Shown here: positions 8,550 through 64,000 of the stretch, one piece after another
Numbering within the stretch: position 1 is the stretch's first letter
Layout: each line of letters opens with the position of its first letter
DNA from: Desulfobulbales bacterium
Lineage (GTDB): Bacteria > Desulfobacterota > Desulfobulbia > Desulfobulbales > Desulfobulbaceae
Reading direction: 5' to 3'
DNA length: 64,000 nt
Assembly (NCBI GenBank): GCA_038318785.1
Contig: JBBQCO010000003.1
Coordinates: 1,761 to 65,760, forward strand
Translations under genes and position numbers: made by a program
The notes under the pieces: generated by a model
Database searches by the model: none
What the model was told of the DNA's origin: nothing
Seen by the model: the letters and a program-made list of their open reading frames with translations, nothing else

Positions 8550-8574
8550 GAGATAATTCGAGGAGGAATCGATT

Positions 8575-8964
8575 ATGAAAGTAGAATTTTGGGGTCAGGA
8601 ATTTAAGGTCAACATGGTGGTCGGTTGTATCGGTGGTTTTCTTATCGCCATCATGTCGTCGATGTTCGGCTTCGGTGGCGGACCCTTCATGGTGCCGCTG
8701 ATGACCGTGGCTCTGCGCCTGCCCATGTACCTAGTGGTCGGCAGCTCTCTGTTGGCCATCTTTTTCAACACCTCGGTCAGTTCGATGCGCCATTACCAGT
8801 TCGGCAACTTTGACCTGATCTTTTTTCTGGCCATGTTCCCGGCCGCTATTCTCGGCGGTTATATTGCGCCGCAGATCGCCAAACGTGTCAGCCCGCTGGT
8901 GGTTAAGCGAATTGCCTGTGTCGGTCTGACCGTGCTGGCATTGAACCTGCTGGGAGTGTATTGA
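8575..8964 (+). CDS. TauE/SafE (TSUP) family second half-transporter
   Basis: GFGGGPFMVP...VVGSSL motif, about 4 TMs, own GAGGAGG RBS. Confidence 0.82.
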   Translation: MKVEFWGQEFKVNMVVGCIGGFLIAIMSSMFGFGGGPFMVPLMTVALRLPMYLVVGSSLLAIFFNTSVSSMRHYQFGNFDLIFFLAMFPAAILGGYIAPQIAKRVSPLVVKRIACVGLTVLALNLLGVY

Positions 8965-9029
8965 TGCTCTGAGGTCTTTTGGCCGCATTATTGGTTGATT
9001 GATCCGTTTTTAACGTACTCAGTAGATAG

Positions 9030-9067
9030 AAAACGCTGGGACGGAATTCCGTTCTGGCGTTTTTTTT
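9030..9067 (+). terminator. Rho-independent terminator
   Basis: AACGCTGGGACGG-AATT-CCGTTCTGGCGTT hairpin followed by a T run. Confidence 0.8.
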
Positions 9068-9070
9068 GCC

Positions 9071-9559
9071 ACGGGGAAAAGGCTCCAGCAGATCACCGGC
9101 TTGCGTCGGTCCGGTGCCGATCGATTGCAGTCAACGGATGAGACCGTTATTTTGCAGGGTGATCAACTGTTGATTATTTCGGAGCGGAATGATCTAGCGG
9201 TAGCGGAAGAGGTGCAGGCTTTCCCCAAAAAGATTGTGATTATTGATGATAATCCAGTGATTGTTCCGGTCTATACCCGGTTGTTTCAGAAGGCCGGGTT
9301 TCATCCACTCACTGCCGACAGCGGTGATGTGGCCTGGCTTTGATTCTCAGGGAAAAACCGGCCGCCGCAGAGGTGGATTTCATGTTGCCCGGATTGTCCG
9401 GGCTGGAGATGTGCCGACACGTTCGCCAAGCCGTTCCCCATGAATCGATGAAGCTTGTTGTCTTTACTGCAGACGACACGCCTCTAGTGCGCGAACAGTT
9501 TGGCTGCAGGGGCGGATGAGGTGATTGTCAAGAGTTCCGAGGCGTCACACATTATGTAG
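9071..9559 (+). pseudogene. Degraded TrkA-C (RCK_C) + receiver-domain gene fragment
   Basis: ITGLRR...VILQGDQLLIIS then KKIVIIDDN; frameshift near 9340 to LILREKP...DFMLPGLSGLEMC; second shift near 9500 to LAAGADEVIVKS; no start or RBS. Confidence 0.7.
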
Positions 9560-9769
9560 GCGTTGTCAGTCGACTTCTTCATCCTTGATTTTTTATATCC
9601 TGCAAGAGGGACAATCAGATTTTCTCAAGGGGCACGCAAGGTGTGCAATCCAGATGAACAAGCATCTGATCGGCTTACAAAAAGCGAATTACTGCTTGCC
9701 TTAATTTTTGGGGAATGCGATACTAAGCTCAAATTTACTGAAAAATTACTTTTCCCTTGAGGGCCGGAG

Positions 9770-10177
9770 ATGACGACTGCAGGGTCATCAGCATTTAATC
9801 CTGAAAAACGCCGGCATACTAGGGTGATATTTACCCGGAGCGTGAAGGTTTTCATTCAAGATAAACCGCAAGGCCAGTTTCCGGCAAGAAACTTGAGTCT
9901 GGGTGGCCTCTTTATTGAGGGTGAGGTCAATTTACCTATTGGCGAAGATTGTCGTTTGGAATTGCATGAAACTGGGCGCCGATCCAGCCTTATTTTGAAT
10001 TTTTGCGGGACAGTTCTCAGAAGGGAAAAGGGCGGTATCGGAGTAAAGTTCACCAACATGGAAGAAGACAGCTTTATGTTTCTCCAGACCATGGTGCTGT
10101 ACTCTTCAGATGATCCTATAGGGGTAGCTGAAAATTTTCTTGAGGATTTTGTCCAGAAGCCTGCATCAACCTGCTAA
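9770..10177 (+). CDS. PilZ-domain (c-di-GMP-binding) protein
   Basis: EKRRHTRV (RxxxR) and NLSLGG (D/NxSxxG) motifs, GIGVKF. Confidence 0.85.
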   Translation: MTTAGSSAFNPEKRRHTRVIFTRSVKVFIQDKPQGQFPARNLSLGGLFIEGEVNLPIGEDCRLELHETGRRSSLILNFCGTVLRREKGGIGVKFTNMEEDSFMFLQTMVLYSSDDPIGVAENFLEDFVQKPASTC

Positions 10178-10300
10178 TTTCATATATAAAAGACAAATAG
10201 GAAGTTCTTGCCCTGATCTCTGTGGTATGAACTTCTTTTTCTTGTTAGAAAACCGGTTCCGATATCCCCCACGCGAACCGGAGAGACAACTGTAGAGTAC

Positions 10301-11119
10301 ATGAATCAAGCTGAAAAAGAACCAACATCGTTCCTCCGCATCGTTGGCGGGATAGGTGACCGGGCGCTCTATATCCTGACCGATCTCGGTCGAATGGGGA
10401 CCTTTTTATTTTTTGCCTTGCTCGGCATGTTTAAACGCCCTTTTCGTTTTAAAGAGTTAATCAAGCAGCTGGGGTTCATCGGTGCGGGTTCAATCACCGT
10501 TATTTTTTTTACGGCCCTGTCCTCGGGCATGGTGCTTGGTCTGCAAGGGTACTATTCCCTCCATAAATTCGGCGCTGAGGGCATGCTGGGATCGGCTGTT
10601 TCCCTGACTCTGATCATGGAGCTCGGTCCGGTGCTGACTGCCCTGATGGTAGCGGGCCGTGCTGGTTCGGCAATGTGTGCCGAAATTGGCATAATGCGGA
10701 TTTCTGAACAAGTCGACGCGCTGGAATGTATGGCCATCGATCCCTTCCGTTACCTCATCTCCCCCAAATTTTTGGCGGCCTTGATCTCAATTCCTCTGCT
10801 GACCGCTGTTTTTGATGTGGTGGGCATCATGGGCGGGTATCTGGCTGGAGTCAAGTTGATGGGGGTCAACGGGGGCTCTTTTTTTGCGGGCATGCAGCAG
10901 AGTGTCACCAACCACGATATCCGTTTAGGCGTGATCAAATCTTTTGTTTTTGCCTTGCTCCTTGTTTGGATTTGCACAGGCCGCGGGTATTTTGTCCAGA
11001 AGATTCGTGGCGCAGGTTTTGGGGCTGAAAGCGTCAGCAAGGTGACGACCCAGGCGGTGGTCTTTTCTTCAATTTCAGTCTTGATTTTCGATTACCTGCT
11101 GACTGCGGTGTTTTTATGA
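10301..11119 (+). CDS. mlaE: Mla ABC permease
   Basis: ELGPVLTALMVAGRAGSA...EQVDALECMAIDP. Confidence 0.93.
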   Translation: MNQAEKEPTSFLRIVGGIGDRALYILTDLGRMGTFLFFALLGMFKRPFRFKELIKQLGFIGAGSITVIFFTALSSGMVLGLQGYYSLHKFGAEGMLGSAVSLTLIMELGPVLTALMVAGRAGSAMCAEIGIMRISEQVDALECMAIDPFRYLISPKFLAALISIPLLTAVFDVVGIMGGYLAGVKLMGVNGGSFFAGMQQSVTNHDIRLGVIKSFVFALLLVWICTGRGYFVQKIRGAGFGAESVSKVTTQAVVFSSISVLIFDYLLTAVFL

Positions 11120-11901
11120 GTGCCGAGAACATTGTGGCCCCCGAGTCTGCCATCCGTTTTGTCGATGTCTGTAAATCCTTTGGTGAGCGGGCGAGGCGGC
11201 ACCTCGTGCTTGATCGGGTTAGTTTTTCAGTGCCCATGGGGAAAACGACGGTCATTGCCGGTGGAAGTGGACAGGGAAAAAGCGTTATCCTCAAGTTGAT
11301 CCTTGGTTTGCTGCGGCCGGAGTCAGGACAGGTACTGGTTGGTGAAAAGAACGTGTCCACAATGGGCTATAAGGCTCTGCAAGAATTAAGGATGCTTTTT
11401 GGCGTTCTTTTTCAGGGTTCTGCTCTGTTTGATTCGTTGACCGTCTTTGAAAATATTGCTCTCCCCCTACGGGAAAGGACAAAATTGACCGAGGGGGAGA
11501 TTCGAAACCGGGTCGCGGCGACGCTGGAGCAACTTGAGCTGACCGGGCATGAGGATAAGTTTCCGGCGCAGCTCAGCGGTGGTATGAAAAAACGAGTCGG
11601 TCTGGCAAGGGCGCTGCAGTTAGAACCGAAGATCGTCTTGTTTGATGAACCTACGACCGGACTCGATCCGGTGATGACCAAGGAGATTTACGAGCTCTTT
11701 GCCCAGACACAGCAAAGACTCGGGTATACGGCGGTGATTGTCAGTCATGATATTCCGCAGATTTTTGCCCTTGCCGATCAAATCATTTTGTTGAATAAAG
11801 GAGAGTTAGATGTGTTCACCGAGGCATCCCAGATCCCTTTTTCAACCAAGCTCAATATTCGCGAATTTGCCCGGCTAGTCATGGGACAGCACACCGTTTA
11901 A
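11116..11901 (+). CDS. mlaF: Mla ABC ATPase
   Basis: GGSGQGKS, LSGGMKKRVGLARA, FDEPTTGLDP. Confidence 0.92.
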   Translation: MSAENIVAPESAIRFVDVCKSFGERARRHLVLDRVSFSVPMGKTTVIAGGSGQGKSVILKLILGLLRPESGQVLVGEKNVSTMGYKALQELRMLFGVLFQGSALFDSLTVFENIALPLRERTKLTEGEIRNRVAATLEQLELTGHEDKFPAQLSGGMKKRVGLARALQLEPKIVLFDEPTTGLDPVMTKEIYELFAQTQQRLGYTAVIVSHDIPQIFALADQIILLNKGELDVFTEASQIPFSTKLNIREFARLVMGQHTV

Positions 11902-50616: not shown

Positions 50617-52344
50617 ATGCTGCAAAACAACCCCGAAATCAAAAGCAAAATCGACCAGCTGTGGAACAAATTCTGGTCCGGCGGTATCTCCAACCCGCTC
50701 ACCGCCATCGAGCAGATCACCTATCTGCTGTTCATGAAGCGGCTCGACGAACTCGACCAGAAAAAGCTGGCCGATGCCGACTTCACCGGCGAGCCCTATA
50801 CCTCCAAATTCGAAGGACAATGGATACCACCGGAATACCGCGCTAAAGCAAGGGAAGACGACAGCCAAAAAGAGAGCGACAAACGCCGGGCCGATGCCAA
50901 GATTTATGAAATCGACAAGCGCACCTTGCGCTGGAGCGAATTCAAGCGCATGCAGGCCGAAGAGATGCTCCAGCACGCCCAGACCAAGGTTTTCCCCTTC
51001 CTCAAGGACATGAACGGGACCGAAAGCAACTTCACCCACCATATGCGAAACGCCGTGTTCATCATCCCCAAACCGAGCCTGTTGGTGGAGGCAGTCAAGA
51101 CCATCGACGAGATCTTTGAGGTCATGGAAACAGACTCTCGGGAAAAGGGGCAGGCCTTTCAGGACATCCAGGGCGATATTTACGAGATGCTCCTTTCCGA
51201 GATCGCCAGCGCCGGCAAAAACGGGCAGTTCCGCACCCCGCGGCACATCATCAAGCTGATGGCCGAGTTGGTGCGTCCGCAACTCGGCCACCGCATTGCT
51301 GACCCGGCCTGCGGGACCGGCGGCTTTTTGCTCGGCGCCTACCAGTACATCGTCACCCAATTGGCCATCAAGGCCGGCACCAACGACCTGCGGCCCGATG
51401 AAGACGGTTTTATCCGCACCTCGGTGGCGGCTGGGTATACCGAAAAGGCGCAGGCCATTCTGCAAGCCTCCCTCTACGGTTACGACATCGACAGCACCAT
51501 GGTCCGCCTGGGATTGATGAACCTGATGATGCACGGCATCGACGAGCCCCAGATCGACTACAAGGACACCCTCAGTAAGAGTTACCTCGAGGAAGCCGAG
51601 TACGACATCGTCATGGCCAACCCGCCCTTCACCGGCAGCATCGACAAGGGAGACATCAATGAAAACCTGACCCTTGCCACCACCAAGACCGAGCTGCTCT
51701 TTGTCGAGAACATCTACCGCCTGCTCAAAAAGGGTGGCACTGCCTGCGTCATTGTGCCGCAAGGGGTGCTGTTCGGCTCCGGCAAGGCTTTCAAAGACCT
51801 CCGGGAAAAATTGGTGACGCGCTGCGACCTCAAGGCCGTGATCACCATGCCCAGCGGCGTGTTCAAACCCTACGCCGGGGTCAGCACCGCGATTCTGCTT
51901 TTCACCAAGGTTTGGGGTCCGAAGGACAAGGTGACCCGACCAGCCACGGAATCGGTCTGGTTTTACGAGATGCAAGCCGATGGGTATTCGTTGGACGACA
52001 AGCGCACCAAGCAGGAAGGGGTTGGCGATTTGCAGGATATTGTCGCCCGATTTCATGCCCGCAACGATGAAACCGGGAATGACCGCACCCGGAAATGCTT
52101 TCTCGTGCCCCGCGTTGAGATTGAGGATGAAGGGTATGACCTGTCGCTCTCCCGGTATAAGGAGGATGTGTTTGAGGAGGTGGCTTATGAGGCTCCGGGG
52201 GTGATTTTGGGGAGGTTGTTGGTGGGGGAGTTGGGGGAGGAGTTTTTTAACCACGAAAGACACGAACAACACGAAAAGGTTTTGGAGGGGGCGAAGAGCG
52301 GGATTGTGCGGGAATTGCTGGAGTTGCGGGGGATGATTGGATGA
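50617..52344 (+). CDS. hsdM: Type I N6-adenine methyltransferase M subunit
   Basis: GQFRTPRH, DPACGTGGFL, NPPF, GVFKPYAGV. Confidence 0.95.
   Translation: MLQNNPEIKSKIDQLWNKFWSGGISNPLTAIEQITYLLFMKRLDELDQKKLADADFTGEPYTSKFEGQWIPPEYRAKAREDDSQKESDKRRADAKIYEIDKRTLRWSEFKRMQAEEMLQHAQTKVFPFLKDMNGTESNFTHHMRNAVFIIPKPSLLVEAVKTIDEIFEVMETDSREKGQAFQDIQGDIYEMLLSEIASAGKNGQFRTPRHIIKLMAELVRPQLGHRIADPACGTGGFLLGAYQYIVTQLAIKAGTNDLRPDEDGFIRTSVAAGYTEKAQAILQASLYGYDIDSTMVRLGLMNLMMHGIDEPQIDYKDTLSKSYLEEAEYDIVMANPPFTGSIDKGDINENLTLATTKTELLFVENIYRLLKKGGTACVIVPQGVLFGSGKAFKDLREKLVTRCDLKAVITMPSGVFKPYAGVSTAILLFTKVWGPKDKVTRPATESVWFYEMQADGYSLDDKRTKQEGVGDLQDIVARFHARNDETGNDRTRKCFLVPRVEIEDEGYDLSLSRYKEDVFEEVAYEAPGVILGRLLVGELGEEFFNHERHEQHEKVLEGAKSGIVRELLELRGMIG
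52250..52276 (+). repeat. Array E: solo forward array in frame inside hsdM; exact reverse complement of array D
   Basis: ACCACGAAAGACACGAACAACACGAAA, 27/27 match; encodes NHERHEQHE(K). Confidence 0.95.
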
Positions 52345-53564
52345 AAATGCTGCAACTCCATACCGTTACGAAAATAATTGCCGGGCAATCTCCGCCGTCA
52401 TCAACATACAATTCTACGGGAGATGGGTTACCATTTTTTCAAGGTAAAGCTGATTTTCAAGAGAAATTCCCAACGGTTCGTATGTGGTGCAACAGCGCGA
52501 AACGGAAAGAAGCCAAACCCGGTGACATTCTGATGTCAGTTCGTGCGCCCGTTGGTTCTGTAAACTTTTGCGACCGGAAATCAATTTTAGGCCGAGGGCT
52601 ATCGGCGATTAGAGCGGGTTCGAGGATAGACTCTGAATTTCTCTACTACTTCTTGAAATCGAGCGAACAGTCGATAGCAAAACTCGGTACAGGCTCTACA
52701 TTCAAAGCCATTACACAGGAAACACTCAAAAAAATAGAAATCCCCCTCCCGCCATTCGACGACCAAATACGCATTGCCCATTTGCTCGGCAAAGTGGAAG
52801 GGCTGATCGCCCAACGCAAACAACACCTGCAACAACTCGACGAACTCCTCAAAAGCGTCTTTCTGGAGATGTTTGGTGACCCGGTGCGTAATGAGAAGGG
52901 GTGGGACACTTCCGATTTTGAAAATATCCTTTCTGATTTAAGAAATGGCCTATCACCTTCCAAAGGCGGCAGCGAAAAAGGATGTGTGTACACGTTATCA
53001 GCTATAACTGGTCAATGTTTCAAGGAAATCTACAAGGAAGATACGTTTTCTCAGATTCAAGATAAATATTTTCCGAAAGAGAATGACTTTCTTATCTGTC
53101 GTGGTAATGGCAACAAAAAGTTAGTTGGTAAAGGGTATTTTTTCACAGGGAAGAGCTCAAACATTATTTTCCCGGATACAATAATTGGCGTTTCGATAGC
53201 GCCTAATACTATCAACAGCCACTTTCTTGAGTCGTTATGGAAAACACGATTCATTAGGCTGCAAATCGAGAATAATGCGAGAACTACAAATGGAGCGTAC
53301 AAGATAAATCAGGAGGTAATAAAAAAGATCAAAATAATCTTTCCTCCTTCAAATCTCCAAGACCAATTTGCCGCCATCGTTGAAAAGGTCGAAAGCCTCA
53401 AAACCCGCTACCAGCAAAGCCTTGCCGACCTGGAAACCCTCTATGGTGCGTTGAGTCAGAAGGCGTTCAAGGGCGAGCTGGATCTGTCGCGGGTGCCGCT
53501 GACGGCAAGGGAATTGGACCACCGGAACCAAGCAAGTGAAGCTGTGGAGGCGGTCGTGCCATGA
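52341..53564 (+). CDS. hsdS: Type I specificity subunit
   Basis: Two AT-rich TRDs separated by IPLPP..DQ.RI and FPP..LQ.QF conserved helices, FLEMFGDP. Confidence 0.93.
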   Translation: MKMLQLHTVTKIIAGQSPPSSTYNSTGDGLPFFQGKADFQEKFPTVRMWCNSAKRKEAKPGDILMSVRAPVGSVNFCDRKSILGRGLSAIRAGSRIDSEFLYYFLKSSEQSIAKLGTGSTFKAITQETLKKIEIPLPPFDDQIRIAHLLGKVEGLIAQRKQHLQQLDELLKSVFLEMFGDPVRNEKGWDTSDFENILSDLRNGLSPSKGGSEKGCVYTLSAITGQCFKEIYKEDTFSQIQDKYFPKENDFLICRGNGNKKLVGKGYFFTGKSSNIIFPDTIIGVSIAPNTINSHFLESLWKTRFIRLQIENNARTTNGAYKINQEVIKKIKIIFPPSNLQDQFAAIVEKVESLKTRYQQSLADLETLYGALSQKAFKGELDLSRVPLTARELDHRNQASEAVEAVVP

Positions 53565-54622
53565 AGAGCCGCGACCAAAAGCTGATCCGCAATTCGACGA
53601 CGGAGTTTTTGTTGTACACCACGCCCAATGGCAAGGTGAAGGTGGAGATTTTTCTGAAAGATGAAAACATCTGGCTGACGCAGGAACGCATTGCCCAACT
53701 GTTCGGGGTGCAGCGCCCGGCCATCACCAAGCACCTGAAAAACATCTTTGAATCTGGTGAGTTGCAGGAGGGAGTGGTCAGTTCCGTTTTGGAACAGACC
53801 ACTCCGCACGGCGCGATAGAGGGCAAAACGCAAACCAAAGCCGTCAAGTTCTACAATCTGGATGCCATCATCTCCGTCGGTTACCGGGTCAATTCGCTAC
53901 AAGCGACACAGTTTCGTATCTGGGCAACGGAGCGCTTGAAAGAATACATCATCAAGGGCTTCACCATGGATGATGAACGCCTGAAAAACCCCACCCGCAT
54001 TTTCGGTGAGGACTATTTCGAAGAGCAGCTCGCCCGGATCCGGGATATCCGCTCTAGCGAACGACGCTTCTACCAAAAAATCACCGACATCTACGGCCAG
54101 TGCAGCGCCGACTACAACAAGGACGCCGAGGAGACCCAACGCTTCTTTGCCACGGTCCAAAACAAACTCCACTGGGCCATTGCCAGGCAAACGGCGGCAG
54201 AGATTATCCGCAACCGGGCGGATAGCCTGAAATCGAACATGGGGCTGACTTCCTGGAAAAATGGTCCCGCAGGCCCCATCCGCAAACCGGATGTTTCGAT
54301 TGCGAAGAACTATTTGAATGAAGAGGAATTGGATAGCCTAAACCGGATTGTGACCATGTATCTCGACTATGCCGAAATCCAGGCCCAGAAGCGGAAAGTG
54401 ATGAACATGCGGGACTGGATTCAGAAGCTGGATGCCTTCCTTCAGTTCAATGAACGAGAAATTCTGCATCATTCTGGCAAGGTCAGCGCCGAGATAGCCA
54501 AAAGTTTTGCCGAGTGCGAATTCGAGAAATACAGCCTTGCGCAGGATCAGCTCTTTGAGAGCGATTTCGACAAGGTGATGAAGCAGATCGAGTCCTCCGG
54601 TACGAAGGGAGGCGAGAAATGA
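53561..54622 (+). CDS. RhuM-family protein
   Basis: WLTQ.RIA.LF, YNLDAIISVGYRVNS, IRDIRSSERRFYQK, AKNYL. Confidence 0.9.
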   Translation: MKSRDQKLIRNSTTEFLLYTTPNGKVKVEIFLKDENIWLTQERIAQLFGVQRPAITKHLKNIFESGELQEGVVSSVLEQTTPHGAIEGKTQTKAVKFYNLDAIISVGYRVNSLQATQFRIWATERLKEYIIKGFTMDDERLKNPTRIFGEDYFEEQLARIRDIRSSERRFYQKITDIYGQCSADYNKDAEETQRFFATVQNKLHWAIARQTAAEIIRNRADSLKSNMGLTSWKNGPAGPIRKPDVSIAKNYLNEEELDSLNRIVTMYLDYAEIQAQKRKVMNMRDWIQKLDAFLQFNEREILHHSGKVSAEIAKSFAECEFEKYSLAQDQLFESDFDKVMKQIESSGTKGGEK

Positions 54623-54770
54623 ACGGCAGTAATTCTACCTGTCAGCATCCCTACACCATCACTCCTGTCATTGTGTATCTGGGTGCCCGGATTAGTGAAG
54701 CGATAGGGCGTTTGACCGTGCTCAGCGATCAGTCCAGGGCGCTGCGACGCATCAACCGCATTCTGATGGC
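54619..54770 (+). pseudogene. N-terminal remnant of a Fic-family gene
   Basis: PYTITPVI...ISEAIGRL...ALRRINRI resembles Fic-family N-termini; no HPFxxGNGR; ORF runs on through a terminator. Confidence 0.55.
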
Positions 54771-54858
54771 CGGGCTCACTGGCTCCTCCAGGGGCTTTGT
54801 CACTGAAACAGGAAGCGATTCCGAACAAATAATCCTGGGATTTGCAAAGCTTCAGTCT

Positions 54859-54896
54859 AAACGGGTAATTGGAGAAATCCAATTACCTGTTTTTTT
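54859..54896 (+). terminator. Rho-independent terminator closing the RM operon
   Basis: AAACGGGTAATTGGA-GAAA-TCCAATTACCTGTTTTTTT. Confidence 0.85.
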
Positions 54897-55444
54897 GTCC
54901 GAGGGGCTGTTATAAAGACAAGTATGTCGACGAGAGGGGCAGTGTTTTCGAGATATATATCTCCTCTTCTTTTTTTGGCCTGATGACTCCTTGGTCATCC
55001 AGTCGACGACTCAAGAACCCTCGGGCCTGACTCGGTACAGAATTTTCCGGTGCCACTTCTTGGGAGCATATTTGAAATCTGAGAGTTGCCCCTGGTAATC
55101 AATTGGATTTATCATTTGTTGATGCAAAATAGATTTTCTTTTTGACTTCGAATTTTGTAGATATACCAATCACTTTTAAAGTTTTGTTTCGCATAACGGC
55201 GGGTTTGTATCAATGTTGTTGATCAGGGGGCGTGGAAACAGGGTAATGTTCCGTTTCTCCATTCAAAGAGAAAGAAGGTGGAAAAGGTAATTACCCGGAA
55301 AAGGGTATTTGGAGCTGAGGGCTGCAACAATTGACCTTCGGCGCTTGCATGAATTGTATCAATTGAACTTATTAAAGTGGGTGGGGGCTGTCGATGAGGA
55401 TTTCGGCAGGCTGAGGTGCGGTATCCAAGTTAAGGAAAGAAACG

Positions 55445-57529
55445 ATGAAAGAGACCAAATACAGCATTTGCGGGATGTGCGCCGTGCGCTGTCCGATAAC
55501 GGTGCAGGTGGAAGACGGCAAACCTGTCTGGATCGAAGGCAATAGCCACGATGGCGGCATGGGCCGCAGTCTCTGCGCCAAAGGTGGAGCCGCCTTTGCT
55601 CAGCGTCTGGACAAGCAACGCCCCACAGCACCGCTCCTCCGCATGGGGCAACGCGGCGATGGGCAGTGGCGGGAAGCCTCCTGGGATGAAGCCTATGAGT
55701 ACATCACCTCCCGCCTCAACACCATCATTGCCGAGCACGGTGGCCGTTCCATCATGTTTTCCGATCGCGGCGGTCCTTTTGCCGACCTGCGTCAGGCCTT
55801 TGTCAAGGCTCTGGGATCGCCCAACTACATTAACCACGACTGTACCTGCGGCCGGAACGTGCATCACGCCTCCAAGTCAGTGTACGGTCTGGGGCGTAAG
55901 GATTTTGCCTACGATTACGAAAACGCCCGCCATATCGTCCTGTTTGGCCGGAACATTACCGAATCCCTCAAGGTCAAGGAAGTGAAAAGCTTCCTCAAGG
56001 GCATCAAGAACGGGGCTCGGGTCACCTATATCGACCCGCGTGCTTCGGTGACCGCCGGCAAGGCCAGTCGCTACTGGCAAATCAAGCCGGGGACCGATTA
56101 TGCCCTGCTGTTGGGCATTGCCCACTGTCTCGTCTACAACAACTATTACGATCTTGAATTTGCAGAAAAATATATCAACGGGCTCTCCGAGTTCAAAACC
56201 TTCCTTGGCCCCTACACCCCGGAGTGGGCAGCGGGTGAAACCGGCATCAGCGCCAACGAAATCGAGGCCTTCTGTCGGGAGCTCAATCAGGACCGGCCCA
56301 AGGTGATCATTCATCCCGGCTGGATGCTGGCCCGGTATCGCGATTCCTTTCATGCCTCTCGGATGATCCACATCCTCAATGCTCTTCTGGGCAGCATCGA
56401 GCAACCCGGCGGGCTTTTCTATCCCAAGGGACCCAAGGATGCAGGCAAATCGGGCTTGAAAAGTCTGGCCGCTCTCGTCCCAGCGGTCAACGAAGAACGG
56501 GCGGACGGCTGCGGCACCCGTTATCCCCAGTGGGACAAGGGGGCGGGAATGCTCCAGACTGCCTACGAGGCCATCGATTCCGGCAGTCCTTATCCGGTCA
56601 AAGCCTATTTTGTCCATCGTCACAATCCCTTCATCGCCCTGCCCGACACCAAGGAGCAGCGGCGGATCCTCGACAAGCTCGACCTGATCGTGGCGGTCGA
56701 TGTCAATTTCAGTGAAACCGCCTGGTTTGCCGATGTCATCCTGCCGGAAAACACCTTTGTCGAGCGCGACGATATCCTGCGCACCGAAAAGGGGCTGAAA
56801 CCCGGATTCGGCCGGCGGCAGCAGTGTGTCAAGCCGCTGAACAACACCAAGGCCGGTTGGGAGATCTACATTGACCTGGCCAAACGGATGGGCAAGGGGG
56901 ACAGCTTTCCTTTCAATTCCATCGAGGATATCTGGCAGTATCAGTTGCAGGACACCGGCCTGTCGGTCGCCGATTTCGACGCCAAGGGGTTTGTCAAGCT
57001 GAGCAGCCAGGCCATCTGGTATGATCGGGACAAGCTCAAATTCGGCACCGAATCAGGAAAAATCGAGATCATCAACCAGAAATGGGAGGCCATGGGCATC
57101 CCTTCATTACCGCCTTACGAGGCCCCGGAACAGCCGCCGGAAGGCAGCTTTCGCCTGCTGTTTGGCCGTAACGGCTATCAGGCCCACGGTCAGCATCAGA
57201 ACAATCCGATCCTCTGCGAACTGCTTGATGTCAACAAACTGTGGATCAACACCGCAGCTGCCAAAAAACTGGGTATCAAGGACGGTGACCAGGTGCTGGT
57301 GACCGCTGGCGACGAGCAGGGGAAGATTGCCGCCTATGTCACCGACCTGATTCATCCCGAGGCTGTCTTTATGCTCCATGGTTTTGGCACCGATGTGCCC
57401 GCCAAGAAACGATCGTTTGGCAAGGGGCTGGCCGATCAGATGTACATGCAGGGCAAGCTTAAAGAGTGGGACAAGGCCGGCGGCGGTCTCAACCTTGCGG
57501 AAAGTTTCGTCACCGTTACCCCGGTTTAA
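55445..57529 (+). CDS. Molybdopterin (bis-PGD) oxidoreductase, Psr/Phs-like catalytic subunit, no Tat signal
   Basis: CGMCAVRC...LCAKG [4Fe-4S], NHDCTC putative Cys ligand, IDPR, PGTDYA, ADVILP, HGFG. Confidence 0.88.
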   Translation: MKETKYSICGMCAVRCPITVQVEDGKPVWIEGNSHDGGMGRSLCAKGGAAFAQRLDKQRPTAPLLRMGQRGDGQWREASWDEAYEYITSRLNTIIAEHGGRSIMFSDRGGPFADLRQAFVKALGSPNYINHDCTCGRNVHHASKSVYGLGRKDFAYDYENARHIVLFGRNITESLKVKEVKSFLKGIKNGARVTYIDPRASVTAGKASRYWQIKPGTDYALLLGIAHCLVYNNYYDLEFAEKYINGLSEFKTFLGPYTPEWAAGETGISANEIEAFCRELNQDRPKVIIHPGWMLARYRDSFHASRMIHILNALLGSIEQPGGLFYPKGPKDAGKSGLKSLAALVPAVNEERADGCGTRYPQWDKGAGMLQTAYEAIDSGSPYPVKAYFVHRHNPFIALPDTKEQRRILDKLDLIVAVDVNFSETAWFADVILPENTFVERDDILRTEKGLKPGFGRRQQCVKPLNNTKAGWEIYIDLAKRMGKGDSFPFNSIEDIWQYQLQDTGLSVADFDAKGFVKLSSQAIWYDRDKLKFGTESGKIEIINQKWEAMGIPSLPPYEAPEQPPEGSFRLLFGRNGYQAHGQHQNNPILCELLDVNKLWINTAAAKKLGIKDGDQVLVTAGDEQGKIAAYVTDLIHPEAVFMLHGFGTDVPAKKRSFGKGLADQMYMQGKLKEWDKAGGGLNLAESFVTVTPV

Positions 57530-57545
57530 ACGCAGGAGAACCAAA

Positions 57546-58049
57546 ATGAGCAAATATATCGTTACCCAGAACGTGGCCGACTGCATCGGATGCCGGGCCT
57601 GCGAGGTCCACTGCAAGGATAAAAACAATAGCGGCCCCGGCGCCTTCTACTGCCGGATGATCGAGGTCACCTCGACCGAAAGCCCATTGCCGCGGATCGA
57701 CTTCGTCTATCTCTCCTGCTTTCACTGTGAAAAGGCCTGGTGCGTCGATGCCTGTCCCACCGGGGCCATGCGTCGCCGCGAAAAAGACGGTATCGTCTAT
57801 GTCGACGCCAAATCCTGCGTCGGCTGCAAGGCCTGCATCACCGCCTGTCCCTGGACCGTGCCCCAGTGGAATCCGGAAAACGGCAAGGTGGAAAAGTGTG
57901 ACCTGTGCATGGACCGGATCGATGAAGGGCTGGAACCGGCCTGCGTCACGAAATGCACCACCGGCTGCTTGAGCTTCACCACCCCGGCCGAGGCCTCACA
58001 GGCCGCCCGGCAAGTCTATGCCGAGCAGCTGTTGCAGAATCGGCGCTAA
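57546..58049 (+). CDS. 4Fe-4S dicluster subunit (PsrB/DmsB-like)
   Basis: CIGCRACEVHC, CFHCEKAWCVDACP, CVGCKACITACP, KCDLC...PAC...C. Confidence 0.92.
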   Translation: MSKYIVTQNVADCIGCRACEVHCKDKNNSGPGAFYCRMIEVTSTESPLPRIDFVYLSCFHCEKAWCVDACPTGAMRRREKDGIVYVDAKSCVGCKACITACPWTVPQWNPENGKVEKCDLCMDRIDEGLEPACVTKCTTGCLSFTTPAEASQAARQVYAEQLLQNRR

Positions 58050-58063
58050 ACGGAGTACGGATT

Positions 58064-58432
58064 ATGGACGCCATACCCAGGGAATATCTCGGCATTCTGC
58101 TGCTCCTGATTTTCGGTGTTCTTTTCGGGGTGCTGACCCTTTTCCTGGGCCGGTTTTTCCGATTGAGCCGGCCGTACCCGGAGAAGCTGATCGCCTACGA
58201 ATCGGGCAATGAACCGACCGAAGCGCCGCGCATGCGTTTTTCAGTGAAATTCTACCTGATTGCCATCCTTTTTGTGGTCTTCGATGTCGAAGCCATCTAC
58301 CTCTACCCCTGGGCCGTCAGTTACGACCGGTTGGGCCTTTTTGCCCTGGTGGAGATGCTGCTGTTCATCGCACTGCTTCTGGTCGGTTACGTCTATGCCT
58401 GGAAAAAGGGGGTCCTGCAATGGGAGAAATAA
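58064..58432 (+). CDS. nuoA: Complex I subunit A
   Basis: [24 protein letters not shown]. Confidence 0.93.
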
Positions 58433-58941
58433 GCGATCCGTCCATGGTCAAGCTGGAAGAGGGGGTACGCTATATCCCCGGCGCCAACGCCATCCTGGGG
58501 CCGCTCAATAAACTGGTCAACTGGGGGCGGGCCGGCTCGATCTGGCCGGTGACCTTTGGTTTGGCCTGCTGTGCCATCGAGATGATGGATGCCGGGGCCT
58601 CGACCAACGATCTCGACCGCTTCGGTATTCTTTTTCGCGCCAGTCCCCGGCAGGCCGACTGCATGATAGTGGCCGGTACCTTGACTAAGAAGATGGCGCC
58701 GGTGCTACGCCGGGTCTATGACCAGATGCCCGAACCCCGCTACGTAATGGCCATGGGGAGTTGTGCCTGCAGCGGCGGCGTCTTTGAAACCTACGCAGTG
58801 ACCCAGGGCGTCGATCTGATTATCCCGGTGGATGTCTATGTTCCTGGTTGCCCCCCCCGGCCCGAGGCCCTGATGGAAGGCTTTCTCAAATTGCAGGAAA
58901 AGATTCTCAAGGAGCAGTTCCGATGGAGTCAATGGCGATAG
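58420..58941 (+). CDS. nuoB: Complex I subunit B
   Basis: [27 protein letters not shown]. Confidence 0.95.
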
Positions 58942-59510
58942 CCGAACGGCTGCGGGCCGAGTTCCCCGATGAGATTATAAGCAGCTATTCGAACCAGGGC
59001 CAGGTAGCGGTGATTCTTCGAGCTGGCCGGATTGTTGATATTCTCCGCTGGCTGCGCGACACCGATGATTTGCAAATGAACCATCTGCGCTCACTCTGCG
59101 GGGTGGATAATGTTCGGCGCAAGGACCCCGGTTTGTCGCGGTTCGAGGTGGTCTACAACCTCTATTCCATCCCCCATCGTCACGAAATTCGCCTTCGGGT
59201 TGAGCTGGGTGACAAAGATCCTGCCATCGATTCGGTGGTCGGCCTCTGGGTCGGGGCCGATTGGCTGGAGCGGGAAACCTTTGATCTGATGGGCATCCGC
59301 TTCAACGGCCACCCTGATCTGCGGCGGGTGCTCCTGCCTGAAGACTGGAAAGGGCATCCCCTGCGCAAAGACTATCCGCTTAAAGGCAAGGAAGAGTGGG
59401 CCGGTTTGACCGAACTGCTGGAAAAGGTCAAGGAGCTGGATCAGTTCGGCTTTGATCCGGCAGGACATGCGCACGGCCAAAGCGAACCTAACGAGGAGGA
59501 TGAGCCATGA
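58923..59510 (+). CDS. nuoC: Complex I subunit C
   Basis: [29 protein letters not shown]. Confidence 0.93.
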
Positions 59511-60733
59511 CCTCGCCGATCAAGCAGACTCTCGAAGTTCCGGTGGCCGACGGCGAAGGCGAACGCTATTCCCTGCGCATGGGGCCGCAGCATCCGGCTA
59601 CCCACGGGGTGCTCCGGGTCGATCTCGAACTGGATGGCGAAACCATCATCGAATGCAAACCCCAGGTGGGCTATCTCCATCGCGGCTTTGAAAAGCTGGC
59701 GGAAAACCGGACCTACGCCCAGGCCCTGATTCTCACCGACCGGCTGGACTACATCGCGGCCATGGCCAACAATGTCGGCTACTGTTTAGCCGTGGAAAAA
59801 CTACTCGGCATCTCGGTGCCGCTGCGGGCCCAGTACATCCGAACCGTGGTTTGCGAGATGTCGCGCCTCTGCTCGCATCTGTTGTGGCTGGCCACCCATG
59901 CCCTGGACATCGGGGCAATGACCGTTTTTCTCTACTGCTTCCGTGAACGTGAGATTTTACTCGATCTGTTCGAGGAGCTGTGCGGGGCACGCCTGACCTT
60001 CTCCTATCCCAGGATCGGCGGCGTCCGTCAGGATGTTACCTCGCATTTTATCGATGAGTTGCAACGGTTCCTCGACATCTTCCCCTCGAAAATCGAAGAG
60101 TATGAAACCCTGATCGACACCAACCGCATCTGGCTGAAACGCACCGTCGGCGTCGGCAAGCTCACCGGCGAGGAGGCCCTGGCCCTTGGCCTCACCGGCG
60201 CCTGTTTGCGCGGCTCCGGCGTTGACTACGATCTGCGCAAACACCAGCCCTACGACGCCTACAATCAGGTGGAATTTGAGGTGCCGCTGGGCAGCGACGG
60301 CGATATCTATGCCCGCTACCGCTGCCGCATGGAAGAGATGCACCAGTCGGTCCGCATTATCCAGCAGTGCATCGATCAACTGCCCCCCGGTCCGATCATC
60401 GGCCCGGATGCCCCGGATCTGGTCATGCCCAACAAGGTTCCGGCTCGAATCGAGGCCGGCAGCAGCGCCTACGGCACCGGCCTGATCAAACTGATCCGCG
60501 ACCGCACCCCTTATCTAACCGGCGATGTCTACGTGGCCACCGAGGTTCCCAAGGGTGAACTGGGTTTTTATTTCATTTCCGACGGCAACAACCGCCCCTA
60601 CCGGATGCACATCCGCTCCCCCTCGTTCATTCATATTGGGGCACTGGCCGCGATTGCCAAAGGCGAATTGATTGCCGATCTGATCGCCAATATCGGCAGC
60701 CTGGACGTGGTTCTGGGCGAATCCGACCGGTAA
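59507..60733 (+). CDS. nuoD: Complex I subunit D (no NiFe-binding CxxC)
   Basis: [40 protein letters not shown]. Confidence 0.95.
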
Positions 60734-60776
60734 CGTTCTTGCCGGCAACCGGTCTTTCTGCACACCGAGGAACAGA

Positions 60777-61745
60777 ATGAACATTCTTCTCATGCTCATG
60801 TGGATCATCATCCTCTTTGCCGTGGTCATGCTCCATGTGGCCTATGCGACCTATTTTGAGCGCAAGATCATTGGCCATATGCAGGTCCGCCTAGGTCCGA
60901 TGCGGGTCGGCTGGCACGGGCTGCTCCAGCCCATTGCCGATGGGGTTAAATCCTTTTTCAAGGAAGACATCATCCCGACCAATGCAGACCGGCCCACCTT
61001 TTTGGCCGCGCCGATCATCTGCCTGGTGGCGATGATGACCTCGCTGGCGGTGCTGCCCTTTGCCAAGGGATGGGTCCTGGCGGATATCAACATCGGCCTG
61101 CTGTTCATTTTTGCCATGAGTTCGCTGGCCAGTTATGGGGTTGTTCTCGCCGGTTGGGCCTCAAACTCGAAATTTAGTTTCCTCGGTGGCCTGCGCTCCA
61201 TGGCCCAGGTCATCAGCTATGAGATCAGTATGGGGCTGAGCTTGGTCGGGGTGATGCTGCTCTCGGGTTCGCTCAACTTAAGCGAGATCGTCGAAGCCCA
61301 GGGCAGCTCCATTCTGGGCATGTATCTCCTGCCCCAATGTGTCGGTTTTTTTGTCTTTTTCATCAGCATGCTGGCCGAAACCAACCGGGTGCCCTTTGAT
61401 CTGCCCGAGGCGGAGACCGAACTGGTTTCCGGTTATGCCACCGAGTACAGCGGCATGCGCTACGCTATCTTTTTCATGTCCGAGTATATCGGCATGATGG
61501 TTATGGCCTCCATCGGCACGGTCTGTTTTCTCGGCGGCTGGAACGGCCCCTTTGCAGTGCCCTTTTTCCCGCCGCTCTGGTTCGTCCTCAAGGTCTACTT
61601 GTTTATGTTCCTCTTCATTTGGATACGGGCCACGCTGCCGCGCTATCGCTATGATCAGTTGATGGATCTGGGCTGGAAACTGCTCATTCCCCTGGCGCTG
61701 GCAAATATTGTCCTCACCGCCTGCCTCAAGGCGATGATCGGGTAA
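60777..61745 (+). CDS. nuoH: Complex I subunit H
   Basis: ERK, GLLQPIADG, Q.ISYE, R.PFDLPEAE.EL, PRYRYDQ. Confidence 0.95.
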   Translation: MNILLMLMWIIILFAVVMLHVAYATYFERKIIGHMQVRLGPMRVGWHGLLQPIADGVKSFFKEDIIPTNADRPTFLAAPIICLVAMMTSLAVLPFAKGWVLADINIGLLFIFAMSSLASYGVVLAGWASNSKFSFLGGLRSMAQVISYEISMGLSLVGVMLLSGSLNLSEIVEAQGSSILGMYLLPQCVGFFVFFISMLAETNRVPFDLPEAETELVSGYATEYSGMRYAIFFMSEYIGMMVMASIGTVCFLGGWNGPFAVPFFPPLWFVLKVYLFMFLFIWIRATLPRYRYDQLMDLGWKLLIPLALANIVLTACLKAMIG

Positions 61746-61768
61746 GGGGAGGGGAGAACTCAAAAAAT

Positions 61769-62407
61769 ATGCAGATTCAATACAAACCCAAACGCGGCTG
61801 GCTGGCGACCATTTTCCAGGTGGAGATTGTCCAGGGCATGACCCTGACGCTCAAGAAGCTCTTTTCCAAGCCGATCACCCGCCAGTATCCCGATGAAAAA
61901 CCGCAGATCCAGGTTGGATTCCGTGGCCAGCACGCCCTGGTGCGCGACCCGGAGACCGGCAGAAGCAAGTGCATCGGCTGTATGCGCTGCGCCATGGCCT
62001 GTCCCTCGCGCTGCATCCGCATCCGCTCGCACAAGGACAAGGAGCCGGGCAGTCGCCGGGTGATCGACTGCTATCGGATCGAGTCTCTGCGCTGCGTCTA
62101 TTGCGGCTACTGCGAAGAGGTCTGCCCGGTCAATGCCATTGTCCTGACTGAAGTCTATGAATACGGCTCTTACGATCGGCCTTCGCTCTACTTCACCATG
62201 GAGCAATTGCTGGCCAATTGGGACCGGTTCGCCGCCGGGATGGACCGGCCGGTTGAAGAATATGTCAATCCCTTCTGGCGGCCGCGCGGCCTGGCCGAGC
62301 GCGATCTGCCCGCCCCGAAGCGGCTGCCCGTCTCGCCCGAGTGGAGCGGCGAGCAGCAGGTGGTGGGACGAAAATGGCGGCAGCACCACGCGCCGGAACA
62401 ATCCTAA
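61769..62407 (+). CDS. nuoI: Complex I subunit I with C-terminal extension
   Basis: T.QYPDE, FRG, CIGCMRCAMACP, CVYCGYCEEVCP. Confidence 0.93.
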   Translation: MQIQYKPKRGWLATIFQVEIVQGMTLTLKKLFSKPITRQYPDEKPQIQVGFRGQHALVRDPETGRSKCIGCMRCAMACPSRCIRIRSHKDKEPGSRRVIDCYRIESLRCVYCGYCEEVCPVNAIVLTEVYEYGSYDRPSLYFTMEQLLANWDRFAAGMDRPVEEYVNPFWRPRGLAERDLPAPKRLPVSPEWSGEQQVVGRKWRQHHAPEQS

Positions 62408-62421
62408 AGAGGGGGCTGTCG

Positions 62422-63003
62422 ATGTTTCTCCAGATCTTTTTTGGCTACTGCGCCCTGATGATCATTGCCAGCGGCATCCTGGCCATCAGCCTGCGTAACC
62501 CGGTCCACTGCGTGCTCATGGTCCTGGTGCTCTTTTTCCACATGGCCGGACTTTACCTGACCCTCAACGCCGAGTTCCTGGCGGCGGTGCAGATCATTGT
62601 CTATGCCGGGGCCATCCTGGTGCTCTACCTTTTCGTACTCTTCCTGGTCAGTTTGCGCGAGGAACTGCACCTGGACGCCTTTATTCCCAACGCCTGGGTG
62701 GGCAGGATTATCGCTGTTGGTCTGGCCTTGGCCCTGGTCTATGTCATACCCGCCTTCACCCTGGGCGAAAAGGGCACCTGGTCGACAGCAGCGATCAACG
62801 AACTGACCCATACCAAGGCCATGGGGCAGGAGATGTATACGACTTACCTGCTGCCTTTTGAGATCGCCGGTCTCATCCTGTTGGTGGCCTTGATCGGCGG
62901 TCTGGTGCTGGCACGACGGGACGAGGGCCAGATCGAGGAGGTCGAGACCCCGAGCGACCAGAAACCCCGCTCTCAAGCCGACCCCAAGGAGGTGACGCTG
63001 TGA
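62422..63003 (+). CDS. nuoJ: Complex I subunit J
   Basis: NPVH, AEFLAAVQIIVYAGAI, PFE. Confidence 0.93.
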   Translation: MFLQIFFGYCALMIIASGILAISLRNPVHCVLMVLVLFFHMAGLYLTLNAEFLAAVQIIVYAGAILVLYLFVLFLVSLREELHLDAFIPNAWVGRIIAVGLALALVYVIPAFTLGEKGTWSTAAINELTHTKAMGQEMYTTYLLPFEIAGLILLVALIGGLVLARRDEGQIEEVETPSDQKPRSQADPKEVTL

Positions 63004-63302
63004 TTCCTCTTTCCTGGTACATGACCCTGGCCGCCATTCTGTTCTGTATCGGGGTCTGCGGTTTTCTCACCCGGCGCAATGTGATCATCATGTTTCTCTC
63101 CATTGAACTGATGCTCAACGGCGTCAATCTCAACCTGGTGGCGCTGAGTCATTTCCTCGACAGTCTACGCGGCCAGGCCTTCACCTTTTTCATCATCACC
63201 GTGGCCGCGGCCGAGGCCGCCATCGGGCTGGGCATCGCCATTGCGCTCTACCGAAGCAGGCGTACTGTGCACGTCGACACCATCAACCAACTGAAAGGAT
63301 AA
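63000..63302 (+). CDS. nuoK: Complex I subunit K
   Basis: RRN, IELMLN, AAAEAAIGL. Confidence 0.95.
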   Translation: MIPLSWYMTLAAILFCIGVCGFLTRRNVIIMFLSIELMLNGVNLNLVALSHFLDSLRGQAFTFFIITVAAAEAAIGLGIAIALYRSRRTVHVDTINQLKG

Positions 63303-63307
63303 CTGTT

Positions 63308-64000
63308 ATGCCGGCTTCTTTGCTTGCCATACCGCTGCTGCCGCTGGCCTCCTTTGTCCTGACCCTGCTCTTGGGCAAGCGTTGGGGAACACGGGCGCAT
63401 TGGTTGCCGATCGTCACGGTCCTGCTTTCCTTTGCCTGTGCCTTGGCCGCCTTTTTCCGGGTCCGCTCCGGCGAGATCATCAACCAGGATATCTACACCT
63501 GGATCGAGTCCGGCAACCTGAGCGTCTCGGTGGGCTTTCTTGTTGACCAACTGACTGCGGTGATGCTGATCGTGGTGACCAGCATCAGTTCCTTGGTGCA
63601 CATCTATTCGGTGGGCTACATGAAAAGCGAGGAGGGCTACTACCGCTTTTTTGCCTACCTGAGCCTCTTTACCTTTTCCATGCTGATGCTGGTACTGGGC
63701 AACAATTTTCTCCAGTTGTTCTTCGGCTGGGAGGCCGTCGGGCTTTCCTCCTACCTGCTGATCGGGTTTTATTACGAAAAACGATCCGCCGCCGATGCCG
63801 GCAAAAAGGCCTTTATTGTCAATCGCTTCGGTGATTTCGGCTTTATCCTCGGCCTCTTTCTCATTTTTACCCAATTCGGCAGCCTCCATTATCAGGAGGT
63901 GTTCAGCCGAGTGGGTTCCCTGGACGGCCAGATGATTTCTCTCTTTGGCAGCCAGGTGAGTCTGGCCACGGTGATTGCCCTGTTGCTGTTTTGCGGGGCA
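63308..64000 (+). CDS. nuoL: Complex I subunit L (3'-partial)
   Basis: Manual translation: IPLLPL, VDQLT, HIYSVGYM, GWEAVGLSSYLLIGF, KAFIVNRFGDFGF; runs off the window. Confidence 0.93.
   Translation, partial: MPASLLAIPLLPLASFVLTLLLGKRWGTRAHWLPIVTVLLSFACALAAFFRVRSGEIINQDIYTWIESGNLSVSVGFLVDQLTAVMLIVVTSISSLVHIYSVGYMKSEEGYYRFFAYLSLFTFSMLMLVLGNNFLQLFFGWEAVGLSSYLLIGFYYEKRSAADAGKKAFIVNRFGDFGFILGLFLIFTQFGSLHYQEVFSRVGSLDGQMISLFGSQVSLATVIALLLFCGA

Follow-up and report, generated by a model that had tools for sequence, protein, structure and literature searches.

What donates electrons to a complex I that is encoded without its NADH-oxidizing module? The question is raised by the 3' end of a 64,000-nucleotide stretch of DNA (the window) from a Desulfobulbales bacterium (GenBank assembly GCA_038318785.1, contig JBBQCO010000003.1; genome G000, contig C3:1761-65760 in our numbering), in which genes for a catalytic molybdenum-bis(pyranopterin guanine dinucleotide) (Mo-bisPGD) subunit, MoA, and a four-cluster iron-sulfur (FeS) subunit are followed directly by nuo genes. 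The source genome is a metagenome-assembled genome (MAG) of 222 contigs, 85% complete, whose nearest public relatives are Desulfobulbus MAGs and isolates. Thirteen genes in the order MoA-FeS-nuoABCDHIJKLMN, all on the + strand, run through the window and the continuation of its contig. We lean towards the reading that they form one operon and that the Mo/FeS enzyme is docked on an 11-subunit complex I, where it replaces NuoEFG. On sequence grounds, the pair is a strong candidate for the electron partner of this proton pump, and the docking, substrate, and direction set out below are what we infer.

The locus bears on 2 questions, namely the electron source of the widespread 11-subunit complex I lacking an NADH module and the route by which electrons at the level of menaquinol reach the far more negative thiosulfate and sulfur couples in disproportionating bacteria. 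If true, a Mo/FeS head mounted on Nuo and encoded in its operon would provide an answer to both and represent a new input module for the complex I superfamily. The coupling hypothesis was already published in 2016 (PMC5165239), and the locus adds a further case. Added here are an FeS phylogeny that tracks the partner, an apparent swap of the catalytic subunit, a reshuffled operon, and paired C-terminal elements of NuoI and the FeS subunit.

Genes of the cluster within the window:
55445 to 57529, + strand: catalytic Mo-bisPGD subunit, PhsA/PsrA-like, 694 aa, without a twin-arginine (Tat) leader (Pfam, solved-structure match, and conservation)
57546 to 58049, + strand: four-cluster FeS subunit, PhsB/PsrB/HycB-like, 167 aa (Pfam Fer4_11; alignments A1 and A3)
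58064 to 58432, + strand: nuoA (Pfam Oxidored_q4; NCBIfam NuoA)
58420 to 58941, + strand: nuoB (Pfam Oxidored_q6; NCBIfam NuoB, 244 bits)
58923 to 59510, + strand: nuoC (Pfam Complex1_30kDa), overlapping the end of nuoB; start chosen from the translation and orthologue starts
59507 to 60733, + strand: nuoD (NCBIfam NuoD, 517 bits; alignment to complex I 49-kDa subunits)
60777 to 61745, + strand: nuoH (Pfam NADHdh, 423 bits), directly 3' of nuoD with no nuoEFG between
61769 to 62407, + strand: nuoI, 212 aa (NCBIfam NuoI matches residues 11-159 only)
62422 to 63003, + strand: nuoJ (Pfam Oxidored_q3); start uncertain, 62374 or 62422
63000 to 63302, + strand: nuoK (Pfam Oxidored_q2)
63308 to 64000, + strand: 5' part of nuoL (Pfam Proton_antipo_N and Proton_antipo_M), which leaves the window

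A Tat-less Psr/Phs-type enzyme without a membrane anchor

The Mo subunit carries the Pfam domains Molybdop_Fe4S4 (residues 4-50), Molybdopterin, and Molydop_binding. Its best solved relative was PsrA (2vpw_A, E 1.3e-111, residues 4-690), with the next solved match at 2.5e-48, and the nearest curated family was NCBIfam PhsA, at 537 bits under an equivalog cut-off of 694. These matches place the Mo subunit in the Psr/Phs clade of the Mo/W-bisPGD family (dimethyl sulfoxide [DMSO] reductase; complex iron-sulfur molybdoenzyme, CISM) and not with Fdh, Nap, Dms, Arr, or Ttr, in agreement with the type assigned to it in an earlier interpretation made from the DNA letters (the sequence-only reading). 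A formate dehydrogenase, which would have made the locus a strict analogue of formate hydrogenlyase (FHL), was excluded, with Fdh models scoring far below PhsA/PsrA (Fdh-alpha, 232 bits). The FS0 [4Fe-4S] motif CxxCxxxC...C was identified at C9, C12, C16, and C44. Cys135, the Mo ligand, aligns to the region of PsrA Cys173 and is invariant in 77 of 77 Tat-less and 5 of 5 Tat-bearing relatives; Cys133, suggested by a pairwise alignment, was dropped in favor of this invariant residue.

Between the preceding stop codon and position 55445 there is no other start, and the open reading frame (ORF) cannot be extended upstream. The protein opens MKETKYSICGMCAVRCP, and the eight residues ahead of its first FS0 cysteine leave no space for the twin-arginine leader of a periplasm-facing active site, whose absence had been read from the letters. 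Homologues were identified in 102 of 401 genomes of the phylum (E <= 1e-120, 34-84% identity). All of those examined (30+) were leaderless, and outgroups bear RRxFLK motifs. In the Mo-subunit tree, a placement that the sequence-only reading had called for, the Tat-less homologues form one clade (support 99) against Tat-bearing Psr-like proteins and the source genome's own Tat-bearing MolyA-like protein; the published sequences of PhsAB-like enzymes from Dissulfuribacter thermophilus and strain GF1 were left out of the trees. By these features, the Mo subunit is assigned to the "cytoplasmic PhsAB-like" enzyme type described in 2026 in Dissulfuribacter thermophilus (PMC13490349), and, given the absent signal, the Mo/FeS pair is predicted to be cytoplasmic.

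Where a PsrC/NrfD-type anchor would be encoded alongside the A and B subunits, nuoA follows instead. No NrfD-family gene was found on this contig, and the 3 NrfD genes of the source genome lie on contigs C52, C1, and C23, which bears out the claimed absence of an anchor. The FeS gene itself was assigned the ATG at 57546, preceded by AGGAGA; its longest ORF begins at 57378, a start that was rejected. The four-cluster nature claimed for this subunit is confirmed by 4 Cys cluster motifs and by its solved relatives, PsrB (2vpw_B, E 1.5e-29, the best) and HycB (E 2e-11).

A quinone-type complex I without NuoEFG

The nuo genes keep the order nuoABCDHIJKL that had been read from the letters, nuoD ending at 60733 and nuoH starting at 60777, and nuoL, nuoM, and nuoN were whole in the extended locus (L001, contig C3:64800-73527). 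All 11 subunits, NuoABCDHIJKLMN, are thus encoded in one cluster that lacks N-module genes. NuoD scored 517 bits against an equivalog cut-off of 360; it retains GPQHPATHG at the quinone site, with the His of the beta1-beta2 loop, as well as the tyrosine of RLDY, ends in GESDR where hydrogenases have DPCxxC, and carries no NiFe cysteines, motifs that mark it, as had been claimed, as the quinone-reducing type. NuoI has a conserved C-terminal extension of approximately 55 residues (encoded from ~62186; alignments A2 and A4) with invariant residues in the pattern LLxNWDxF...YxNPxWRPRG...KR, which is missing from the 2 other NuoI proteins of the source genome.

The sequence-only reading had stated that nuoEFG found downstream of nuoN would speak against it. 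With the contig read past nuoN, we found neither nuoE, nuoF, nor nuoG within or after the nuo cluster; nuoN is followed by chrB, a major facilitator superfamily (MFS) transporter gene, and the chromate transporter gene chrA (L001:5506-8727, contig C3). The claim that this complex is without a NuoEFG partner stood as far as the cluster is concerned; the genome as a whole does hold nuoEFG, inside a separate and complete nuoABCDEFGHI operon. The source genome encodes 3 complex I operons: the Mo/FeS-linked one, a second lacking EFG on C33, and the canonical nuoABCDEFGHI operon of the 14-subunit type on C92/C120. Since the only true nuoEFG set lies inside its own operon, its serving the Mo/FeS-linked complex was set aside as unlikely. 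A second NuoF-like gene (C92) is part of a Hox-type NiFe hydrogenase cluster, and a third, encoding 620 aa, lies on C103.

A single operon is supported by the overlapping nuo genes and by the gap of exactly 14 bp between the FeS stop codon (58047-58049) and the nuoA ATG (58064), a spacing already noted from the letters. Metatranscriptome contigs from relatives, originating from 2 studies, span both junctions, FeS-nuoA (57911-58177 and 57818-58117) and MoA-FeS, with 4 such contigs in all from activated sludge and sediment. The runs covered 0.05-0.20 of the stretch from relatives 90-97% identical, and in our view the bridging contigs argue only weakly for co-transcription. Scans for consensus promoters and terminators yielded counts not above shuffled sequence (4 vs 4.0 and 13 vs 11.0). 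Between the FeS gene and nuoA, the same scans found terminator and promoter signal not above background, a result uninformative on an internal promoter either way.

The linkage recurs in five families

A synteny survey of Desulfobacterota, also called for by the sequence-only reading, recovered the MoA-FeS-nuoABCDHI order in approximately 28 of 29 informative Desulfobulbus/Desulfobulbaceae loci. The operon is present in Desulfobulbus elongatus DSM 2908 and D. alkaliphilus DSM 24258, and a close MoA homologue was identified in D. oligotrophicus. The full 13-gene cluster was also found in 3 families outside Desulfobulbaceae (f95, f103, and f44), with an additional small four-cluster ferredoxin gene sitting between the FeS gene and nuoA in f103. 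Another family, f33, has its complex I genes in a different order (MoA-FeS-nuoB-D-I-A-C-H-J-K-L-L-M-N) and retains the link to MoA-FeS. The f33 loci (L124 and L127, genomes G030 and G257) carry 2 NuoL-like genes after K, followed by M and N, and the same genomes hold a second operon in which a 142-aa four-cluster ferredoxin gene abuts nuoA (L125:4844-5272).

Linkage to Nuo is recurrent and partly independent, covering Desulfobulbaceae and 4 other Desulfobacterota families, and on the Mo-subunit tree it requires at least 3 changes on well-supported branches. These observations bear on the reading that the adjacency is functionally meaningless, a gene order simply inherited within one lineage. 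Most linked loci do come from close relatives (Desulfobulbus), and their counts are not independent; however, the link recurs in 5 families, persists through the gene-order reshuffle and an apparent exchange of the catalytic subunit (described below), and is reported from Thermodesulfovibrio, in another phylum (PMC5165239). We regard mere inheritance of gene order as very improbable.

Other homologous pairs have other neighbors. A GltD/NfnB-like NAD(P)H flavoprotein gene (~760 aa) follows the FeS gene in 29 of 61 non-Nuo loci, and a third clade combines a short 150-aa FeS subunit with neighboring permease genes of the TauE/SafE type. A word-based search for natural fusions recovered FeS-GltD-like (~900 aa) and FeS-NrfD fusions. 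Because Nuo-linked, flavoprotein-linked, and fused forms occur, the Mo/FeS pair may be seen as a portable head for alternative electron modules. At 2 further loci, L163 (G096) and L165 (G319), the homologous MoA lies in one case 3' of a nuoN-like gene and in the other diverges from nuoA-nuoB on the opposite strand.

The FeS subunit follows the partner

The FeS phylogeny sorts by partner, Nuo or GltD-like, better than the Mo-subunit phylogeny does: linkage to GltD requires 4 changes on the FeS tree, 2 of them forced, against 7 changes on the Mo tree, 6 of them forced. The Nuo subunits of the f44 operon are 77-84% identical to those of the window, a likeness on par with congeneric genomes, and its FeS subunit is 66% identical and nested inside the Desulfobulbaceae FeS clade (support 100/99), whereas its MoA is only 42% identical and falls in a different, well-supported clade. 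With FeS and Nuo close and MoA distant, the catalytic subunit of f44 appears to have been exchanged while the FeS subunit stayed with Nuo.

At its C-terminus, the FeS subunit bears a conserved tail, EASxxxRQxFAEQLLxNRR, which Nuo-linked and GltD-linked homologues share and the 150-aa partner-less clade lacks. In the only Desulfobulbus locus without nuo following (L020, n=1), the FeS protein (154 aa) ends before the tail. In that MAG, the FeS gene (8103-8567) is followed, in place of nuo, by a convergent gene for a PocR/PAS hybrid sensor kinase (8759-11731), an arrangement that may reflect either a genuine rearrangement or a chimera arising from co-assembly.

Strong matches to the NuoI extension were identified in 25 of the 401 phylum genomes, all within the 5 families described above. 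In the loci checked, a gene for a PhsB-like or small four-cluster FeS protein precedes the complex I genes that bear the extension, with a single exception (genome G016, below). The FeS tail and the NuoI extension are candidate docking elements and point to a functional link between the FeS subunit and Nuo. In E. coli FHL, HycF, the NuoI homologue, has a C-terminal extension that contacts and holds HycB (bioRxiv 10.1101/2022.03.21.484881). The same architecture, a four-cluster adaptor together with an extended NuoI homologue, is found here, and the arrangement would be a close analogy to HycB-HycF docking.

Proposed mechanism

We propose that the substrate of a cytoplasmic PhsA/PsrA-like enzyme is an inorganic sulfur compound, thiosulfate or polysulfide/sulfane sulfur being the most likely, and that the enzyme's FeS subunit docks on NuoI, as HycB does on HycF, wiring the Mo enzyme to the Q-module. 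Electrons would pass between the Mo site, FS0, the 4 clusters of the FeS subunit, the 2 NuoI clusters, N2 of NuoB, and menaquinone, and NuoH/A/J/K/L/M/N would couple this path to proton translocation. Complex I being reversible, such an assembly would connect a low-potential sulfur couple with menaquinone/menaquinol. The potentials are approximately -400 mV for thiosulfate/(sulfide + sulfite), -270 mV for sulfur/sulfide, and -75 mV for menaquinone, a gap of the size bridged by reverse complex I using the proton motive force. In the forward mode, a reduced sulfur species would be oxidized and protons pumped. During disproportionation, the enzyme would likely run in reverse, with the proton motive force driving menaquinol electrons to the Mo site and so paying for the reduction of thiosulfate or sulfur. 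The menaquinol would be generated in the oxidative branch (Dsr and Apr, acting via DsrMKJOP and Qmo); dsrAB is present in the source genome.

Published expression data from 2 other species fit the reverse mode. In Desulfolithobacter dissulfuricans GF1, thiosulfate disproportionation was the only condition under which the Nuo proteins GF1_30510/30520, encoded after PhsA-1/B-1, were detected (PMC9751629), and Nuo was induced during sulfur disproportionation in Desulfurivibrio dismutans. The docked-complex reading also draws on Ca. Desulfobulbus rimicarensis, in which phsAB and nuoABCDHIJKLM were among the top transcripts (PMC7117923).

A more far-reaching version, which we put forward tentatively, is that a distinct complex I lineage has the PhsB-like protein as its twelfth subunit. 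Held by the NuoI extension and its own tail, this protein would act as a socket for exchangeable heads, either PhsA-like proteins of different clades or just a small ferredoxin-like protein; with a PhsA-like head, the whole would be a reversible proton-pumping sulfur-compound:menaquinone oxidoreductase. If this were true, the enzyme would provide the energy-dependent reverse electron transport that has long been postulated for the disproportionation of thiosulfate and sulfur. For mutagenesis and structural work in cultured strains bearing the operon, concrete and cheap targets are at hand in the NuoI extension, the FeS tail, and the swapped catalytic subunit.

Points against docking and the alternatives

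Several observations weigh against a docked, sulfur-specific enzyme. The closed 2.77-Mb genome G016, of the same genus, retains this type of Nuo and the NuoI extension without the Mo/FeS genes, and no MoA homologue was found in it with the Mo-subunit query; the pump is therefore not strictly dependent on the module and can work with another donor. No natural FeS-Nuo fusion was recovered in the word-based search, which is weak evidence. With long branches in f33 and f44, the number of independent origins and the inferred swap are less secure. Contigs from RNA libraries can hold DNA, and a single transcript is not thereby proven. In Dissulfuribacter thermophilus, Nuo was more abundant under H2/sulfite than during thiosulfate disproportionation and did not track the PhsAB-like enzyme. 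At the active site, the position of PsrA Arg332 is Trp or Tyr in the Tat-less family and Arg in Tat-bearing relatives, and an invariant Arg108 is specific to the Tat-less family; because the active site differs from PsrA and the score lies below the PhsA cut-off, the substrate of the Mo enzyme is uncertain. At the G016 locus (L126, C1:1582000-1600000), a complete rRNA operon (16S, 2 tRNAs, 23S, and 5S) lies directly 5' of nuoA, and Nuo is intact.

The G016 genome bears on a reading in which the 2 parts are co-transcribed and physically separate, a soluble PhsAB-like enzyme and a Nuo acting as a ferredoxin (or other carrier):menaquinone oxidoreductase, connected by a diffusible carrier and shared regulation. 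Beyond the occurrence of the same Nuo type without MoA/FeS, this reading gains from other 11-subunit complexes, which are thought to be fed by ferredoxin or by multiple donors (PMC11238625; PMC5165239), from the Dissulfuribacter thermophilus homologue, encoded away from nuo and described as cytoplasmic (PMC13490349), and from the loose binding of FdhF in FHL (bioRxiv 10.1101/2022.03.21.484881). On the other side, four-cluster subunits of this enzyme class normally pass electrons to a bound partner, and the sister arrangement has its flavoprotein partner adjacent or fused. Both the FeS phylogeny and the FeS tail track the partner type, the NuoI extension co-occurs with FeS genes ahead of the complex I genes, and the operons of f1, f95, and f44 have no ferredoxin gene. 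We judge separate enzymes somewhat unlikely.

The active-site differences bear instead on the substrate. The enzyme might be docked on Nuo and yet act on something other than inorganic sulfur, such as another oxyanion or an organic compound, with the link to disproportionation being coincidental. The PhsA score (537 vs 694 bits) and an active-site signature unlike that of PsrA and Tat-bearing Psr-like proteins would allow this, and substrates in the DMSO reductase family are unreadable from sequence alone (PMC12998232). However, PsrA and PhsA are the nearest solved and curated relatives by a wide margin, sister clades are linked to permeases of the TauE/SafE sulfite-exporter family, thiosulfate disproportionation strongly induces a homologue (PMC13490349), and the family is concentrated in sulfur-cycling Desulfobacterota. 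A substrate outside inorganic sulfur chemistry seems to us distinctly improbable, and docking with a sulfur substrate remains the favored reading.

Comparison with known systems

The closest arrangement is that of Thermodesulfovibrio sp. N1, for which Frank et al. 2016 raised the same coupling (PMC5165239). There, PsrAB-type genes (THER_0567/0568) are joined to an EFG-less nuoABCDHIJKLMN (THER_0569-0582). The organism belongs to another phylum, Nitrospirota, the coupling was proposed in a passing remark, and we draw the likeness by gene arrangement. A second Thermodesulfovibrio Nuo adjoins pyruvate:ferredoxin oxidoreductase genes (PMC5165239). For the 11-subunit complex I in general, PMC11238625 (citing Moparthi and Hagerhall 2011) reports that the search for a common donor failed and that a docking platform for various donors was proposed.

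E. coli FHL-1 (FdhF-HycB-HycCDEFG; PDB 7Z0S/7Z0T) likewise combines a Tat-less Mo-bisPGD enzyme, a four-cluster adaptor, and a complex-I-like membrane module; HycF has a C-terminal extension, as NuoI does here, and the FeS subunit of the window matches HycB. In contrast to FHL-1, the membrane module here is no hydrogenase but a quinone-type Nuo (His and Tyr, no NiFe cysteines) with 3 antiporter-like subunits, a Psr/Phs-like protein takes the place of a formate dehydrogenase as catalytic subunit, and the NuoI extension lacks a Cys4 metal site. PsrABC of Thermus thermophilus (PDB 2VPW) and PhsABC of Salmonella share with the pair the fold, domain order, FS0 motif, Mo-ligand Cys, and four-cluster FeS subunit, but the enzyme described here has no Tat leader or NrfD-type anchor, its active site is predicted to face the cytoplasm, Arg332 is replaced by Trp/Tyr, Arg108 is invariant, and its score is below the PhsA cut-off.

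Two-subunit enzymes with neither a Tat leader nor PhsC are known from 2 sulfur-disproportionating Desulfobacterota, Dissulfuribacter thermophilus S69 (DITHS69_2027/2028; PMC13490349) and Desulfolithobacter dissulfuricans GF1 (PhsA-1/PhsB-1, GF1_30490/30500; PMC9751629). Consecutive locus tags suggest that the GF1 genes lie directly 5' of nuo (PMC9751629). The PhsAB-like enzyme of Dissulfuribacter thermophilus was among the proteins most induced in thiosulfate disproportionation, but its genes are apart from nuo, and the authors model a soluble enzyme (PMC13490349). A Nuo complex with a PhsAB-like enzyme is discussed in neither report (PMC13490349; PMC9751629).

Upstream region and other genes of the source genome

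Directly 5' of the Mo-subunit gene lies a 530-bp intergenic stretch on the + strand. An alignment of 12 Desulfobulbus loci identified a TATCAAT..AATTTAT..AAA block in most upstream regions, within this intergenic region, and in the window it provides a candidate regulatory feature:
55352 to 55377, + strand: semi-conserved upstream motif AATTGTATCAATTGAACTTATTAAAG, candidate promoter/operator, ~70-90 nt 5' of the Mo-subunit start

Further upstream, a type I restriction-modification cluster at 50617-54915 encodes HsdM, HsdS, a RhuM-family protein, and a 98-aa ORF. It terminates in a strong, terminator-like hairpin with a 15-bp stem (54859-54892), after which the 530-bp intergenic region begins.

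The other EFG-less nuo operon (C33:8861-20328) encodes a short NuoI (150 aa) and 4 antiporter-like subunits (500, 596, 505, and 471 aa) and could represent a variant of complex I that carries an additional pumping subunit. On contig C11 (16650-20320; L114:1152-4824), we identified a TorD-like chaperone gene grouped with genes for a Mo subunit of 736 aa that bears a Tat leader and for an FeS subunit of 266 aa, with no NrfD anchor. This layout matches the published MOLY (MolyCAB) cluster, regarded in a 2026 survey as the marker that best indicates sulfur disproportionation in this phylum (PMC12998232).

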